From assembly GCA_948466345.1 (NCBI GenBank), contig CAOKAC010000001.1:194283-258282 (forward strand): 64,000 nt of DNA. The letters run 5' to 3'. This DNA comes from an uncultured Clostridia bacterium (GTDB taxonomy: Bacteria; Bacillota; Clostridia; Oscillospirales; CAG-272). Of the stretch, positions 1,866-58,062 are shown one piece after another. Numbering within the stretch: position 1 is the stretch's first letter; each line of letters begins with the position of its first letter. The notes below the pieces were generated by a model. The model worked only from the letters and a program-made list of their open reading frames with translations. It searched no databases and was not told the DNA's origin. The position numbers and the translations under genes are program-made.

Positions 1866-2951
1866 TTATTTTATTAAAGTCAATGTGTATTCTTTAGTAC
1901 CAAGTCCTGCTTCTTCCAGTTTTTCTATCTGGACATAGGGATCTTTTCCGTGAAGACGATAAAACAAATGTCCATCCTCTCTCAGTTCCATTCCATCGGG
2001 AATCCCCTGCGGAATCAGATTTTCCATTTTGACAGCGTCTACAGATGCCTGTTCCAGAGAAACCATATCCCATCCGGACATAATTCCAATATCGGGAACC
2101 AGCGCAGGCGTAGTCATCCCCCAGCAATCACACAAGGCGGTAATTTGTGTAAGCACATTTATGTAAAAAATATTTCCGGGTGCAAAGGTGTCACAAACTG
2201 CTTTGGTGCACAGCGCCATACCGGTTTGAAAATCCGTATAGTCATGCGAGTCTAGCGTGATCGCATTGGTAGGGCAAACTTTCACGCAGTGTTGGCACAG
2301 GGTGCAGTTATGGTAGTTTACGTGATAGGCGCCGTCCTCTCCAAAATGATTCGCATAATGGTTGCAGGCACCTAAACACTTATTGCAATGGATGCATTTA
2401 TCCGGATCCCATAAAAGTCCTCCCTCCAGGGAATGAATCTCATGGCGGGTCCGGTCGGTAACACAACCCATGGCAATATTTTTGCATGCGCCGCCATATC
2501 CGCAGGCGCCATGTCCTTTTACGTGAGAAAAATCAATCATAAAATCCGCGTCGTAAATCAGTCCCGCCACATCAATATGCCGCAGCTTTTTATAGTCTGC
2601 CTCCACCGTGTAAAAGTATTTACCGAAATATCCGCAGTCGTCCAGCACAGGACAGCCCAACCCCGCTTCGGAATACCCTCTTTCATGCGGACGGCGGTGA
2701 GCTATATAATGATCTGTAATAAAGCATTCGCCGCCGCTGTCTTGGACAAACTGCACCAGTTTGCGTACAAAAACAGGCGGGATCGTAGAGTAGGAAACGC
2801 CGTCCCCCACATGCATTTTAATTGCAACTTTTTTTCCTCGAACAGCTTCACCTAATCCGCACGCAGACAACATACGGGAAAATTTTTCAGGTAGGGTCTG
2901 AGAAGCTTCATATTTGGAAAATGCCATTGGTGCAAAATAAACTTCAGACAT
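1866..2951 (-). CDS. DUF362 domain protein with 2x[4Fe-4S] ferredoxin insert
   Basis: ORF 1866..2972 trimmed to ATG at 2951 (MSEVYFAP) with AAGGAG 8 nt upstream; the track start is TTG. Two CxxCxxCxxxCP-type motifs (CIHCNKCLGAC, CTLCQHCVKVCP) in a DUF362-like frame. Confidence 0.7.
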   Translation of the reverse strand: MSEVYFAPMAFSKYEASQTLPEKFSRMLSACGLGEAVRGKKVAIKMHVGDGVSYSTIPPVFVRKLVQFVQDSGGECFITDHYIAHRRPHERGYSEAGLGCPVLDDCGYFGKYFYTVEADYKKLRHIDVAGLIYDADFMIDFSHVKGHGACGYGGACKNIAMGCVTDRTRHEIHSLEGGLLWDPDKCIHCNKCLGACNHYANHFGEDGAYHVNYHNCTLCQHCVKVCPTNAITLDSHDYTDFQTGMALCTKAVCDTFAPGNIFYINVLTQITALCDCWGMTTPALVPDIGIMSGWDMVSLEQASVDAVKMENLIPQGIPDGMELREDGHLFYRLHGKDPYVQIEKLEEAGLGTKEYTLTLIK

Positions 2952-2999
2952 TTGTACTGCTCCTTCTTTCAATATACAAACGAAAAAACTCTAAGAGGT

Positions 3000-3028
3000 A
3001 TTCTATCACAATTTTGTATAGACTGCAA
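3000..3028 (-). promoter_or_regulatory. Sigma-A type promoter for DUF362-HAD genes
   Basis: Minus strand TTGCAG-17 nt-TAGAAT with TGa extended -10. Confidence 0.45.
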
Positions 3029-3073
3029 GGAATATTTTCTATAGGAACTGCGAATGACAGCAAATCGTAAAAT

Positions 3074-3088
3074 TTGCAAAATTTGCAA
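3074..3088. promoter_or_regulatory. Perfect 7-1-7 palindrome TTGCAAA-A-TTTGCAA in the divergent DUF362/gdhA control region
   Basis: Read directly; lies 8 nt upstream of the gdhA -35. A third TTGCAA copy (3105-3110) sits inside the gdhA promoter spacer. Confidence 0.35.
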
Positions 3089-3095
3089 TTTTGTA

Positions 3096-3125
3096 TTGAC
3101 AAACTTGCAAAACGTGTGATAAAAT
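3096..3125 (+). promoter_or_regulatory. Sigma-A type promoter for gdhA
   Basis: TTGACA-18 nt-TAAAAT with TGa extended -10; about 40 nt upstream of the gdhA ATG. Confidence 0.5.
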
Positions 3126-3127
3126 AA

Positions 3128-4513
<1,386 letters not shown>

Positions 4514-16273: not shown

Positions 16274-17284
16274 ATGTATCAGGACAAAAAAGTTGTGTTC
16301 TCCGGTGTACAGCCCTCCGGCGTGCTGACCATCGGAAACTATCTGGGAGCGATCCGAAATTTTCCCAAATTCTCTCGGGAGTACCGGTGTTATTATTGTG
16401 TGGTAGATGAGCACGCCATTACAGTACGGCAAAATCCTGCCGATTTGCGCCGCCGCACCTATGAAACCCTTGCGCTGTATCTTGCCTGCGGCCTGAATCC
16501 GGAGGAAAATGTTATATATGTGCAAAGTCATGTTTCAGCCCATGCAGAGCTTGGATGGATCCTGGACTGTTACACCATGTTCGGGGAATTATCCCGTATG
16601 ACACAGTTCAAGGATAAAAGCAAAAAAAATGCCGATAATGTCAACGCTGGACTGTTTACCTACCCTACCTTGATGGCTGCGGATATTCTTCTGTATCAAA
16701 CAGAATTGGTGCCTGTAGGCGATGACCAGAAGCAGCACCTGGAGATTACCCGGGACATCGCAGGACGGTTTAACAGCATTTATGGGGACGTATTTGTGAT
16801 ACCGGAACCTTTTATCAGTAAAACTCCGTCTGCCCGAATCATGAGTCTGGCAGAACCTACAAAAAAAATGAGCAAATCGGATGAAAATGAAAATGCCACC
16901 GTTCGGATTTTAGATCCCCGGGATGTAATTATCCGCAAATTTAAGCGCGCTGTAACAGATTCCGATACGGTAGTATGCGCCAGAGAAGGTAAAGACGGGA
17001 TTATCAATTTGATGTCCATATATGGGGCGCTTACTGGAAAAAGTTTTGACGAAATTGAGAGTGAATTTTCCGGTAAGGGATATGGAGATTTCAAGCTGGC
17101 CGTGGGTGAAACCTGTGCAGATGTGCTTGCGCCGGTGCAGACTGAATATGCCCGGCTGATCGCAGATAAAAAATATCTGGAAGAAGTAATGGCAGCCGGT
17201 GCGCGTACTGCTGCCCGGGATGCTATGAAGACCCTTTCCAAGGTGCGCAGAAAAGTAGGCTTTACCGATTTCCCTCGGTACTGA
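16274..17284 (+). CDS. trpS: Tryptophan--tRNA ligase
   Basis: ORF 16247 (TTG) trimmed to ATG 16274: MYQDKKVVFSGVQPSGVLTIGNYLGA; KMSKS loop present (KKMSKSD). Confidence 0.93.
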   Translation: MYQDKKVVFSGVQPSGVLTIGNYLGAIRNFPKFSREYRCYYCVVDEHAITVRQNPADLRRRTYETLALYLACGLNPEENVIYVQSHVSAHAELGWILDCYTMFGELSRMTQFKDKSKKNADNVNAGLFTYPTLMAADILLYQTELVPVGDDQKQHLEITRDIAGRFNSIYGDVFVIPEPFISKTPSARIMSLAEPTKKMSKSDENENATVRILDPRDVIIRKFKRAVTDSDTVVCAREGKDGIINLMSIYGALTGKSFDEIESEFSGKGYGDFKLAVGETCADVLAPVQTEYARLIADKKYLEEVMAAGARTAARDAMKTLSKVRRKVGFTDFPRY

Positions 17285-54449: not shown

Positions 54450-55268
54450 TCACTGTCCGCTGAGAAGAATCCTATCTGTCGTAAACGCCTTCTTTTTCTT
54501 CTCCGTATATAGCTGCAGCAATCCGTCCATAGTCATGTCGTCTCGCTCTTTCCCTTTCAGGGAAAGAATGATAGATCCGCTGTCCATCATAATAGTGCTG
54601 TTGCCGGTTACAAGAGCCTGCTGCATATTGTGGGTAATCATAAGCGTAGTCAAATTGTTTTCCCGGACAATTTCGTTTGTGATCTCCATAATCTTTTCTG
54701 CTGTTGCCGGATCTAGAGCAGCTGTATGCTCATCCAGAAGCAGCAAATCCGGCGTAACCAGTGTACACATCAGTAGCGTTACCACCTGTCGCTGTCCGCC
54801 CGACAGTAATCCTACCTTCGTTTTCATCCGGTCTTCCAGTCCCATATTGTATTTTGCAAGGGCGGATCGAAAAAAGTCGGATTTCCTTTTTGTAAGGGCC
54901 GGCGCCAAAGGCCCACTGTGAGCCCGGGTATAGGCCAGGGCAAGATTTTCTTCGATAGTCATTCCCGGCGCCGTTCCCTTCATTGGATCCTGGAACACCC
55001 TGCCGATTCTTTTGGCCCGTTTATGCTCCGCCAAAAACGTGATATCTGTTCCGCCAAGGTGAATGGACCCCTGATCGGGCAGATAGGTACCGCAAATTGC
55101 GTTGAATAATGTACTTTTTCCGGCGCCGTTGGATCCAATAATAGTAACAAAATCGCCACGCTGTAAGGTAAGATTTACATTTTCCAGTGCGGTATGTTCG
55201 TTTACCGTTCCCTTACCAAAAGTTTTGGACAGACCGCAAATTTCCAACATTGGTGTATCCGTACTCAT
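54450..55268 (-). CDS. ABC transporter ATP-binding protein (trpZ-like)
   Basis: ORF trimmed to ATG 55268 (ATGA overlap with the permease stop). Walker A GSNGAGKST, signature LSGGQRQ, Walker B LLLLDEH. Confidence 0.88.
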   Translation of the reverse strand: MSTDTPMLEICGLSKTFGKGTVNEHTALENVNLTLQRGDFVTIIGSNGAGKSTLFNAICGTYLPDQGSIHLGGTDITFLAEHKRAKRIGRVFQDPMKGTAPGMTIEENLALAYTRAHSGPLAPALTKRKSDFFRSALAKYNMGLEDRMKTKVGLLSGGQRQVVTLLMCTLVTPDLLLLDEHTAALDPATAEKIMEITNEIVRENNLTTLMITHNMQQALVTGNSTIMMDSGSIILSLKGKERDDMTMDGLLQLYTEKKKKAFTTDRILLSGQ

Positions 55269-56197
55269 GCCCGTCGCGCCTCCCATCTATTTTTCCAGGA
55301 AATCAAAGCATCTCTTGCAGCAGGAATGATCAGCGTGAGTGCTACAATCACAGCGCACAGCAGTTTCATCAGGTTTGCGCTGTTTGCGCCAAACAGTTCT
55401 GCGTCTACTACAAAGGTTACAATGATTTTATAAAGGATAGAACCGCACACAGCGGATATCAGGCCGATGGTCACGCCGCGTCGGCTCCGGGGAAGCAAGG
55501 AAAACAACGCTTCTCCAATGATTACCGCGGCCAGACCATAAATCAAAGTGCCGCTGCTGGAACTGGCGTCGGAATATCCCACATAGTGGGCGATAAGTGC
55601 GCCGGACAGGGCGATGAGACCGTTAGAAATACACAGGCCAATGATTTTCGTTCGATCAACATTGATGGAAGATGCACGGACCATATCCGGGTTATCTCCC
55701 GTTGCCCGGATACACAGGCCAAGATGGGTTTTGAAAAACAGAGCTATCAGCAAAACGATCAAGATGCATAAGGTAGCGGCAAGAATTGCTCCGACAATTT
55801 TTTTATCGTCACGGCTGGCGGCTTCGCCCAAAAAGGCATATGCCAGCTTGAACAGAGAGCCCTCCCCTATGGCCAAGTTAGGACCGCTCCGGACCATCAA
55901 ATTGATGGAGTATAACCCGCTCATCGTGATAATACCAGCAAGCACCGGATGCACCTTCAACTTCGTTTGTAAAAATCCGGTGACAAGGCCAGCAGCAAAG
56001 CCTGCCAGCAAAGCAAACAGGAGAGAAATATTGGGATGATATCCCATAGCTACTGCAGCGGCCGCTACAGCGTTGCCAAATCCAAAGGAGCCTTCTGTTG
56101 TCAGATCCGGAATATTCAGCACCCGTAGAGAAATAAACACGCCAATGGCCAAAAGTCCATATAGAAAGCCCTCTTGCAAGGCTGTTACATATAGCAT
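55265..56197 (-). CDS. ABC transporter permease (BPD_transp_2 type; trpY-like)
   Basis: 310 aa; N-terminus LQEGFLYGLLAIGVFISLRVLNIPDLTTEGSF typical of this permease family. Confidence 0.85.
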   Translation of the reverse strand: MLYVTALQEGFLYGLLAIGVFISLRVLNIPDLTTEGSFGFGNAVAAAAVAMGYHPNISLLFALLAGFAAGLVTGFLQTKLKVHPVLAGIITMSGLYSINLMVRSGPNLAIGEGSLFKLAYAFLGEAASRDDKKIVGAILAATLCILIVLLIALFFKTHLGLCIRATGDNPDMVRASSINVDRTKIIGLCISNGLIALSGALIAHYVGYSDASSSSGTLIYGLAAVIIGEALFSLLPRSRRGVTIGLISAVCGSILYKIIVTFVVDAELFGANSANLMKLLCAVIVALTLIIPAARDALISWKNRWEARRA

Positions 56198-56215: not shown

Positions 56216-57220
56216 TTATTCTTCGTATAGTTTAATGGTATAGCCCAGAGTCTCTTCATCAGGAATCGCTACGTCCAGCTTTTGTGCCAGCGCGGCGTTT
56301 ATAGTGCAGTAGTCTACGTCTACCACAATAGAGGCAATTGCTTCCACCGCTTTCCCTTTTAGATACTGGTCGGCCATAGCGGCAGTTTTTTCACCGATAC
56401 CTTTGTCATCAATAGCAAGAGTAGCAAGACATCCGGAAGCCACAGTAGTTGCGGACGAGCAATATGTAGGGATTTTTTCGTCTTTGCAGATTTCTGTCAG
56501 CGCCGAGATACCGGACTGTACGACAGCGTCATTAGGGATAAAGATTACGTCTGCACCGTCTGCAATTAGCGCCTCGGTTACACTGCCAACGTCATCGGAG
56601 GTTTCCACCGTTTTTACCGTATAGTCGATATTTTTTCCTTCCAGATAATCACAAGCAGATTTTACTGTGTCTGTGGCATTTGCCTGTGCTGTGCAGTAGA
56701 TAAACCCAAACTTGGTGACGTTTGGTGTGAGGGTATATGCCAAATCTATAATATCAGAGGTAGGAATAGCGTTAGATGTGCCGGTTGCATTTTTATCTGG
56801 GGTTTCCATCTCCGTAATGACACCGGCGGCTACAGGAGCGGATACGGCGCAGAAGAAGTTGGGCGTTTCCGATTCCATATTTACAAACGCCTGGGTTGCA
56901 GGTGTGGCAATGGTGAACACAGCGTCATAGGAACCATCGTCCATCGTAGAGCAGATTGTGGACAGTGTTGTCGCGTCTCCCTGGGCGCATTTGTAATCAA
57001 TTGTCGTATTCTCCTCAGTATATCCGGCATTTTCCAGACCGGCGATGACACCGTCCCGCATATCCAAAAAGGCACCGTTTTCAATTTGGGAGATGATCCC
57101 GAATTTGTAGGTTTTTTGATCGCCGTCTTTCTCTTGTGGTTCCACGTTTTTGGTACAGCCACCGAGCAGAAAAGCAGCAAATAGGGTAAGCAACAAAAGG
57201 ATAGAAATTTGTTTTTTCAT
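56216..57220 (-). CDS. ABC transporter substrate-binding lipoprotein (ABC_sub_bind/PF04392-like; trpX-like)
   Basis: 334 aa; lipobox LLGGC; FGIISQIENGAFLD...CAQGDATT...DAVFTIATPATQA pattern of the PF04392 family. Confidence 0.8.
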   Translation of the reverse strand: MKKQISILLLLTLFAAFLLGGCTKNVEPQEKDGDQKTYKFGIISQIENGAFLDMRDGVIAGLENAGYTEENTTIDYKCAQGDATTLSTICSTMDDGSYDAVFTIATPATQAFVNMESETPNFFCAVSAPVAAGVITEMETPDKNATGTSNAIPTSDIIDLAYTLTPNVTKFGFIYCTAQANATDTVKSACDYLEGKNIDYTVKTVETSDDVGSVTEALIADGADVIFIPNDAVVQSGISALTEICKDEKIPTYCSSATTVASGCLATLAIDDKGIGEKTAAMADQYLKGKAVEAIASIVVDVDYCTINAALAQKLDVAIPDEETLGYTIKLYEE

Positions 57221-57274
57221 GATGATCCTCCAATCGTTATGGTATATATTTCAGCCGCCGCAGCGGATTCTGAC

Positions 57275-57303
57275 TTGATTTTTCAGCAGGTGGTCGCTAT
57301 ACT
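57275..57303 (+). promoter_or_regulatory. Sigma-A promoter for the Dabb gene
   Basis: TTGATT-17 nt-TATACT. Confidence 0.5.
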
Positions 57304-57334
57304 TTATGTATATTATAGAAGGGAGTGCTGCTCT

Positions 57335-57628
57335 ATGACGCACATGGTATTTATGAAATTTGAGGCAGGATTTTTCTCTCAGGCTGTTTTTCAGGAAATA
57401 GCCGATGGATTCTGCAAACTGCAGGAGGCGATGCCGCAGGAAATAGTATCGGTGCAGGTATTGGAAAACTGTATTGCAAGGGAATCAAATATGGATCTTC
57501 TGATCCAAATGGAACTACGGGACGCAGCAGCGCTGGATCAGTATCTAAGGCATCCCATTCATCTGGAAATCGGCAGAATTATGAATCCCCATATTGTACA
57601 GCGCTGCTCTTTTGACTATACGACATAA
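57335..57628 (+). CDS. Dabb (stress-responsive alpha/beta-barrel) family protein
   Basis: ORF trimmed to ATG 57335: MTHMVFMKFEAG....L..YLRHPIHLEI; 97 aa; RBS GAAGGGAG. Confidence 0.7.
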   Translation: MTHMVFMKFEAGFFSQAVFQEIADGFCKLQEAMPQEIVSVQVLENCIARESNMDLLIQMELRDAAALDQYLRHPIHLEIGRIMNPHIVQRCSFDYTT

Positions 57629-57644
57629 ACATTTTGCAGTAAAA

Positions 57645-57909
57645 ACAAAAAAATCCTGTCCTAAAAGGACAGGATAAAACCTGCAGTGCCACCTTTTTAC
57701 ATGTAAAATACATGCCGCTTTTCAGAGTGCCAACACACCCCTGCCTTTAACGCAGGCATACGGTCCGGGTACTTAGCAAGCTGCCTTTCTCCATTCCCTC
57801 AGCGATCCATTTGCCGGGCGACCTGCCGCAGGGCTTTCACCCTCCCCTGCTCTCTGTAGACGTCCACGTCGGTTTGATCTTCGCTTCATCGGTTTATTTG
57901 CTTTTATTT
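57645..57909 (-). promoter_or_regulatory. T-box riboswitch leader, tryptophan (UGG) specifier
   Basis: Minus-strand reading. Stem I: GAUGA K-turn element, AGAGA box and GGGUGAAAG distal loop. Specifier AAAUGGA (UGG 57809-57807) closed by AGCGA/UCGCU. F-box GCGUUA (57753-57748). Stem III CAUGUA-UUU-UACAUG. Antiterminator: A1 AAAAGG/CCUUUU, 7-nt bulge UGGCACU (57691-57685), A2 GCAGG/CCUGU. Competing terminator AUCCUGUCC-UUUUA-GGACAGGAU + U7 (57675-57647). Confidence 0.88.
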
Positions 57910-57915
57910 GTTAGC

Positions 57916-57944
57916 ATTATACTCTGTCATAGTGATGTTGTCAA
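57916..57944 (-). promoter_or_regulatory. Consensus sigma-A promoter driving the T-box leader
   Basis: Minus strand TTGACA-17 nt-TATAAT (both hexamers perfect). Confidence 0.75.
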
Positions 57945-58032
57945 GGGGAAAAACAAATTTTTTGCGTCTTGTTTTGAATTATTTGAGACACAATGTATGC
58001 CATAGCCCTCCCTCTATCGAAATTAAAGATGC

Positions 58033-58062
58033 AAAAAGGCTGCGTTTCCGCAGCCTTTTTTG
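58033..58062. terminator. Hairpin terminator after nifJ
   Basis: AAGGCTGCG-TTTC-CGCAGCCTT flanked by A- and T-runs, 5 nt after the nifJ stop. Confidence 0.8.

Follow-up and report, generated by a model that had tools for sequence, protein, structure and literature searches.

A tryptophan T-box leader parted from a TrpXYZ-type importer operon by a convergent Dabb gene in an uncultured Clostridia bacterium

T-box control of the importer TrpXYZ by tryptophan has been shown experimentally in Streptococcus suis (PMC9382623). In the streptococcal trpXYZ operons (S. suis SSU1307-type), genes for a PF04392 substrate-binding protein (SBP), a permease and an ATPase stand behind a terminating T-box with a UGG specifier; the T-box lies directly before trpX, and the genes were shown to be co-transcribed from a single promoter (PMC9382623). 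The locus described here has the same parts. It lies in a 64,000-nt stretch of DNA, hereafter the window, from an uncultured Clostridia bacterium of the Oscillospirales (lineage CAG-272; assembly GCA_948466345.1, contig CAOKAC010000001.1, positions 194,283 to 258,282). Unlike in the streptococci, a convergent gene of the Dabb family stands between the T-box leader and the importer genes. We propose that the T-box probably still gates the TrpXYZ-type importer, through a "noncontiguous operon" in which read-through transcription would cross the Dabb gene in the antisense direction.

Opposite-strand genes inside a co-oriented unit, with fully complementary mRNA, are known from the noncontiguous operons, or excludons, of Staphylococcus aureus, such as menE-menC...ytkD (Saenz-Lahoya 2019; PMC11034616; PMC7154746). 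Those units were defined by transcriptomics, whereas the case in the window is known from the layout of the DNA alone. It differs from them also in that the overlap would be gated by a T-box and that the antisense gene appears once to have belonged, in sense, to the operon itself. The atlas of noncontiguous operons makes no mention of riboswitches or T-boxes (PMC11034616). A terminator-type switch convergent to a gene is likewise found in the antisense riboswitches, namely the B12 riboswitch/AspocR of Listeria and the S-box opposed to ubiG-mccBA in Clostridium acetobutylicum (PMC2566862; PMC9943018). In these systems the antisense RNA is the sole output, whereas read-through in the window most likely also carries a sense target, the importer. 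Finally, in Bacillus thuringiensis YBT-1518 an opposite-strand gene parts a Trp T-box from a Trp transporter that, in relatives, is under its direct control (PMC9943018, Fig 3A). That gene is a strain-specific transposase and the case was judged spurious, whereas the gene in the window is conserved, under selection and, to all appearance, once part of the operon. Our literature search found no paper tying Dabb to T-boxes. All components of the locus are thus of known kinds; what sets it apart is the conserved ex-operon gene between switch and target, the age of a layout that extends to a whole clade, and the probable dual service, sense and antisense, of the presumptive read-through.

The T-box leader and its specificity

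The leader and its borders comprise the following features, in coordinates of the window.

57916..57944, minus strand: promoter of the T-box leader, TTGACA-17-TATAAT, 12 of 12 matches to consensus
57662..57898, minus strand: T-box leader, full length, aligned to RF00230 model positions 1-219
57807..57809, minus strand: specifier UGG (Trp), context AAAUGGA, 5' of the specifier-loop closing helix, from the RF00230 model alignment
57663..57697, minus strand: antiterminator AAAAGG / 7-nt bulge UGGCACU (57691..57685) / GCAGG-loop-CCUGU / CCUUUU, from fold and model
57647..57675, minus strand: intrinsic terminator, 10-bp stem (57675..57653) followed by U6, -15.1 kcal/mol, conserved in the clade
58033..58060, both strands: bidirectional terminator following the PFOR gene that lies upstream, its 12-bp stem flanked by T-runs on both sides

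An earlier note on this stretch, made from the letters alone, had described a canonical Trp T-box behind a perfect TTGACA-17-TATAAT promoter, and the hallmarks that it named were all located where it had placed them. Stem I carries GAUGA...UGAG, the AGAGA bulge, GGGUGAAAG and the distal loop GGUGAAAG; the F-box GCGUUA is present as well. In a covariance-model search, RF00230 matched the leader over the whole model (75.5 bits, E 2.2e-16), so that the element withstood this check. The epithet canonical is borne out by the full-length match but not by the score. The curated gathering score of RF00230 is 93 bits, a lower-scoring match is recovered only by an E-value threshold, and the default Rfam search of all 64,000 nt, with curated thresholds, gave no match. 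At E <= 0.001 the T-box was the sole RNA-family match in the window. The whole class behaves alike: 20 T-box leaders next to TrpX-like operons scored between 36 and 103 bits, and that of locus L021 (102.6) alone passes 93. Since leaders of this class fall below the Rfam cut-off, standard annotation would leave such operons without a regulator. As to trpS, at 16274, the note had considered it free of T-box control; no RNA-family match was found there, and the gene is without a T-box.

Comparison with related loci showed the leader to be under constraint. Across the window and its clade, mean column identity is about 80%, with the promoter hexamers, the specifier context, the T-box sequence and the terminator invariant. 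Both promoter hexamers are identical in the window and nine related genomes, and loci L003, L007 and L010 also carry a TTGACA-17-TATAAT site with 12 of 12 matches. When 13 diverse Stem I sequences were analysed with RNAalifold, 16 of the 19 pairs were found to hold through two-sided changes; the closing helix of the specifier loop alternated between G-C and A-U. On the upstream side, the terminator at 58033-58060 isolates the T-box promoter from the PFOR gene.

The earlier note had allowed either of two UGG triplets as specifier, and only one of them stands. The model alignment points to the first: after UGG at 57809..57807 come the conserved purine A and the closing helix UCGC/GCGA. This UGG is invariant in the clade, and distant relatives have UGG at the same position. 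The second, within GAAUGGA, belongs to the Stem II region. It is not conserved in L010 and L040 and was rejected as specifier; the lack of conservation leaves the first UGG. The antiterminator that the note had folded by hand, with its UGGCACU bulge, is exactly the minimum-energy fold of 57700..57663 (-9.0 kcal/mol), and the terminator that it had given as a 9-bp stem with U7 is the 10-bp stem with six U, counted differently. The two hairpins overlap through CCUGUCCUUUU and are mutually exclusive. The conserved T-box sequence of the leader reads AAGGUGGCACUGCAGG. In bacterial tRNA-Trp the discriminator is G73; the antiterminator bulge reads UGGC or UGGU among relatives, and C and U are both able to pair with this base. 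A search for tRNA genes found none in the window or in 47 of the fetched loci. Judged by sequence and predicted fold, the leader is a Trp-specific, transcription-terminating T-box.

The importer, the Dabb gene and their layouts in relatives

Beyond the terminator, the following genes and signals concern the argument.

56216..57220, minus strand: gene for a TrpX-like substrate-binding lipoprotein (the SBP), PF04392, 181 bits
55265..56197, minus strand: gene for an ABC permease (TrpY-like), PF02653, 102 bits, syntenic in all relatives
54450..55286, minus strand: gene for an ABC ATPase (TrpZ-like), PF00005, 111 bits, syntenic in all relatives
57227..57231, minus strand: ribosome-binding site GGAGG of the SBP gene, read from the sequence and conserved in the alignment
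57335..57628, plus strand: Dabb-family gene, 97 aa, PF07876, 40.2 bits against a cut-off of 25
57275..57303, plus strand: Dabb promoter TTGATT-17-TATACT, 9 of 12 matches

By their Pfam matches, a PF04392 SBP, a BPD_transp_2 permease and an ABC ATPase stand in one operon, as the earlier note had it. Its view of this operon as the trpXYZ target of the T-box holds in part. The linkage to a UGG T-box speaks for it, as does the single NCBIfam match of the SBP, to NF041285 (ABC_SBP_TrpX; 215.5 bits, E 9e-64). That score is, however, below the equivalog cut-off of 390, and the SBP differs from streptococcal TrpX in having Ser/Asp instead of Ala/Gln in the binding pocket. The nearest solved relatives are CD0873 (6HNI), SP1069 (3LFT) and VC_1101 (3LKV), which bind Tyr, Trp and Phe, respectively. 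Two columns that are reported to determine aromatic specificity, defined by the positions of Glu263 and Tyr279 in CD0873, hold Ser and Asp in all 22 of the 22 T-box-linked SBPs (motifs YCSSATT and LAIDDKG in the window); the same columns hold Ala/Gln in SP1069, Glu/Tyr in the Tyr binder and Ala/Tyr in the Phe binder. The SBP of the window lacks the Tyr that sterically excludes Trp; the Ser/Asp pair itself is uncharacterised. Since this pair is unlike those of the Trp, Tyr and Phe binders, the ligand may be a differently bound Trp or a related indole compound.

The Dabb gene and its own promoter, both noted earlier, were found again. The gene is convergent to the T-box and divergent from the SBP gene, with equal position and orientation in 16 loci. 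Its dN/dS (ratio of nonsynonymous to synonymous change) of 0.07-0.21 indicates strong purifying selection, and the Pfam match together with this ratio ruled out a mis-called reading frame or a pseudogene. Between the window and most relatives its synonymous sites are near saturation (pS, the proportion of such sites that differ, 0.55-0.70), with 40-70% of positions differing clade-wide. Purifying selection on Dabb and conservation of the leader at saturated synonymous divergence argue that gene and switch are both functional and that the layout is old. Of 11 clade genomes, 10 keep the Dabb promoter in position, and L010 has a nearby alternative (TTGAAA-17-TATAAT, 11 of 12 matches). A search of the PDB with the Dabb profile returned olivetolic acid cyclase only, weakly (E ~5e-4), and gave no functional lead.

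At its 3' end, Dabb stops 24 nt from the base of the T-box terminator. On the plus strand, a scan of 57629-58060 revealed no intrinsic terminator before the bidirectional one at 58033-58060. Because the T-box hairpin is followed on this strand by AAAACC, without a U-run, a Dabb transcript would cross the whole T-box and its promoter in antisense. The Dabb mRNA may thus have a 3' untranslated region of about 430 nt, fully complementary to the T-box leader and running through its promoter.

To place the locus among its relatives, the SBP was scanned for in one genome per species, giving 37 loci; more came from a metagenome scan and from the contexts of Dabb homologs, for about 50 in total (designated by L numbers). 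Genes were mapped by tblastn; for the T-boxes, nhmmer, Rfam and a scan for motifs were used. Where the sequence extended far enough upstream, almost all loci had a UGG T-box on the strand of the SBP gene; it was seen in the relatives scored with the Rfam model and, by the motif scan, in most of the other loci. Four gene layouts were found, each with such a T-box.

Layout a: T-box directly before the SBP gene (L011, L012, L016, L033, L037)
Layout b: T-box, then a gene for a GldA-like iron-containing alcohol dehydrogenase (Fe-ADH), then SBP (about 20 loci, mostly labelled Lachnospiraceae or its genera)
Layout c: T-box, sense Dabb, usually Fe-ADH, then SBP (L036, L043, L045/46, L047/48, L050, L052)
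Layout d: T-box convergent with Dabb, Dabb divergent from SBP (window, L001-L010, L038-L040, L049, L051)
Sense Dabb as first cistron, coordinates in the locus: L036 2507-2815; L043, L045 and L047 4001-4300; L050 980-1288; L052 3501-3803

Layout d thus comprises 16 loci, including 10 species-level genomes, and forms one clade; a metagenome scan with the Dabb alignment yielded three loci, all of this layout. In layout c, every locus has a T-box match ahead of the sense Dabb, and the specifier was read as UGG except in L050. Two further loci, L041 and L042, have Dabb, Fe-ADH, SBP, permease and ATPase genes in sense, with no T-box at E <= 0.01 in the 188-nt upstream gap (3813-4001), and so depart from the near-universal linkage. 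The presence of a UGG T-box upstream of the SBP gene in all four layouts, the direct fusion in L011, the TrpX-only NCBIfam match and the S. suis precedent all point to the importer as target. Together, these comparisons support the PF04392 ABC importer as the evolutionary partner of the T-box.

The operon of the sister clade, which consists of uncultured Clostridia (L036, L043, L045, L047, L050, L052), has the same UGG T-box type, the same Dabb subfamily and the same Ser/Asp SBP subfamily. There Dabb is the first cistron in sense, usually followed by Fe-ADH, whereas in the clade of the window Dabb is inverted, has its own promoter and is without Fe-ADH. Full-length comparison of the Dabb proteins from layouts c and d gave 36-43% identity and 24 invariant columns. 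In a midpoint-rooted neighbour-joining tree, the antisense and sense Dabb proteins were reciprocally monophyletic, the groups coinciding with orientation, and in the SBP tree the inverted-Dabb and sense-Dabb clades were sisters. Within the inverted clade, that tree also places L011, where Dabb is missing and the T-box is joined directly to the SBP gene. The distance from T-box to SBP is 541 nt in L045, with sense Dabb, and 472-605 nt in the inverted clade.

The simplest history of these layouts is that Dabb is an ancestral operon member that was flipped once, at the base of the clade. Once inverted, the gene came to have a promoter of its own, TTGATT-17-TATACT, within the spacer between it and SBP. 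The earlier note had raised the possibility that Dabb is an insertion. Comparison of orthologous loci turned this around: a foreign insertion was ruled out, the gene being the first sense gene of the T-box operon in the sister clade. Phase-variable inversion or recent recombination was ruled out as well, the orientation being fixed in all 16 assemblies, and an assembly artefact was excluded by the equal layout of independent assemblies. A search for inverted repeats found short AT-rich or coding-forced pairs only, none cleanly flanking Dabb; one such pair, 57359-57375 and 57649-57665 (17 nt, 82%), has an arm in the Dabb codons for FEAGFF. No invertase was seen among the identified neighbouring genes.

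Predicted transcription across the Dabb gene

Two further features lie between the T-box terminator and the SBP gene.

57221..57646, minus strand: untranslated stretch for read-through, about 426 nt, mostly antisense to Dabb, from the list of open reading frames
57251..57273, minus strand: conserved GC-rich inverted repeat (hairpin or palindrome) UCAGaauCCGCugcgGCGGCUGA, from the spacer alignment, some 35-45 nt before the SBP start

In the arrangement that we favour, transcription would start at the consensus promoter (57944..57916, minus strand). By the mechanism established for T-boxes, the UGG specifier and the UGGC of the bulge would pair with the anticodon and the acceptor end of uncharged tRNA-Trp and so stabilise the antiterminator. 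When the tRNA is charged, the 10-bp terminator and its U-run would stop transcription near 57647. Under Trp limitation, the polymerase would continue antisense through the whole of Dabb, over about 426 nt, and into the SBP, permease and ATPase genes. These genes have a good ribosome-binding site but lack a conserved promoter. Less certainly, transcription gated by the T-box, which is strong, and that of Dabb, which is weaker, may collide and yield complementary RNAs. Induction of the importer would then lower Dabb, and Dabb transcription would in turn cross the T-box and its promoter up to 58033-58060.

The intervening stretch was searched for anything that might make such read-through unnecessary. 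No conserved or credible minus-strand reading frame lies in 57221..57646, which agrees with the roughly 425 nt that the earlier note had considered empty. That note had also seen no convincing SBP promoter in 57221-57334, and this too held. A strict sigma-70 scan of the SBP strand found no promoter in the Dabb-SBP spacer of the window, L003, L007 or L010, so that the sole strong SBP-strand promoter in these loci is that of the T-box. In a relaxed scan, sites with at least 7 of 12 matches were placed on the spacer alignment of 11 genomes. SBP-strand sites recurred in at most 4 of the 11, those being sites that overlap the start codon, and none was positionally conserved. On the minus strand from 57646 to 57221, no strong terminator was detected.

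Several observations weigh against read-through to the importer. A perfect TATAAT at 57317..57312 on the minus strand, which the window shares with L009 alone, its closest relative, could be part of a weak SBP promoter; its -35 is poor (GCGTCA) and the spacer is 18 nt. SBP could also be driven independently through the palindrome at 57273..57251, as part of an operator or of a promoter that is not of sigma-70 type. A weak, terminator-like 6-bp hairpin at 57507..57492 (minus strand) recurs in L007; it is dictated by Dabb codons for DLLI. Over about 200 nt (57532..57332), the minus-strand RNA has 24-29% C against 13-21% G, and such a rut-like excess of C over G in an untranslated stretch of 426 nt means that Rho could terminate the read-through. 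It is rare for a T-box to stand more than 300 nt from its gene: in a census of 2008, a distance of 300-480 nt to the following start codon was recorded for 48 of 887 (PMC2494555). Lastly, Dabb is co-induced with the importer in the sister clade, which makes antagonism in the window paradoxical unless the interference is mild.

The palindrome deserves a closer description. Within the clade its stems are conserved and its loop varies (UGCG, UGCA, UUUU, AAU) or changes compensatorily; L010 carries GGGCgaauGCCC where the window has UCAGaauCCGCugcgGCGGCUGA. It could be an element of mRNA processing or stability, or an operator. A similar CCGC...GCGG-UGAAA element was seen in the Dabb-SBP spacer of L045.

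These data bear on three other explanations of the locus. In one, the T-box is uncoupled from the importer: the SBP operon would have its own non-consensus or non-sigma-70 promoter in the 114-nt spacer, and the only role left to the T-box would be that of an antisense riboswitch, lowering Dabb in response to uncharged tRNA-Trp. Antisense-placed T-boxes are on record (107 of 15,851; PMC9943018), the SBP-strand TATAAT of the window and L009 would suit such a promoter, and the strongly conserved blocks of the spacer, the GC palindrome among them, are not fully explained by the Dabb hexamers. Yet the two conserved blocks coincide with the Dabb -10 and -35 hexamers, plus the palindrome; an SBP-strand promoter is nowhere positionally conserved across the clade; between the starts of Dabb and SBP there is no terminator that would confine the antisense RNA; and the linkage of T-box and SBP is near-universal in relatives, down to the direct fusion in L011. 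We therefore consider uncoupling unlikely.

If read-through does reach the importer, the leader might simply be long and neutral, the inversion being tolerated and the convergence having no meaningful effect on Dabb. The weakness of the Dabb promoter (9 of 12) and the shortness of the gene would fit this, as would a survey in which T-boxes were not enriched in antisense positions and cases with a transposase in between were called spurious (PMC9943018). The layout has nevertheless been kept in at least 10 species-level genomes during synonymous saturation, and the noncontiguous operons of S. aureus show mutual repression (PMC11034616). With Dabb ending 24 nt from the terminator base and no plus-strand terminator before 58033, a full overlap of the transcripts would be hard to avoid, and neutrality seems improbable. 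Still harder to entertain is a relic, in which the T-box is a decaying remnant of the operon as it was before the inversion and read-through is aborted before SBP, for instance by Rho. The C-over-G composition of the 426 nt and the weak hairpin at 57507..57492 could be read in this way, but a relic would have decayed, whereas promoter, specifier, bulge and terminator are invariant or changed in a compensatory manner at a distance where neutral sites are saturated. This makes it very improbable.

We thus retain a T-box-gated noncontiguous operon as the probable arrangement. How far its two units influence each other is more tentative. The convergent units may possibly repress each other, in which case Dabb would be anti-regulated here and co-regulated in the sister clade. 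If read-through is confirmed, the locus would be a natural and evolutionarily stable T-box-gated noncontiguous operon, and the sister clade, with its sense genes, would provide a built-in comparison in which the cost and benefit of convergent transcription can be tested directly. In the clade of the window, the rule that a T-box controls the next gene on the same strand fails in a conserved fashion, and annotation pipelines would miss both the sub-threshold T-box and its target.

Fe-ADH and further observations on the related loci

A GldA-like Fe-ADH (PF00465) stands between a Trp T-box and the SBP gene in about 25 loci (L013-L015, L017-L032, L035, and L036 at 2812-3915; other example coordinates are L019 2702-3823 and L021 2664-3758). 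The two proteins that were scored against NF006941, the glycerol dehydrogenase subfamily, reached 188-204 bits against a cut-off of 336. Nothing found in the literature reported an Fe-ADH in a tryptophan-starvation operon. Dabb and the GldA-like Fe-ADH, two unstudied proteins, extend the tryptophan T-box regulon in Clostridia from gut and rumen, and hint at a step linked to tryptophan acquisition. A broader proposal, which we regard as rather doubtful, is that the gene flip reversed the regulatory sign of Dabb and created a tRNA-gated toggle between Dabb and importer, in which Dabb transcription would for its part occlude the T-box and its promoter, and that Dabb, Fe-ADH and the Ser/Asp SBP may form an uncharacterised module for tryptophan starvation or salvage instead of a plain Trp importer.

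Two minor observations were made outside the importer operons. In L045, a weak and short T-box match (1995-2138, ~144 nt, 38.5 bits) precedes a gene for prolyl-tRNA synthetase. A gene for RNase P RNA (259 bits) is found close by in each of L010 (1613-1977) and L051 (5237-5601), which suggests that these two contigs come from closely related organisms.

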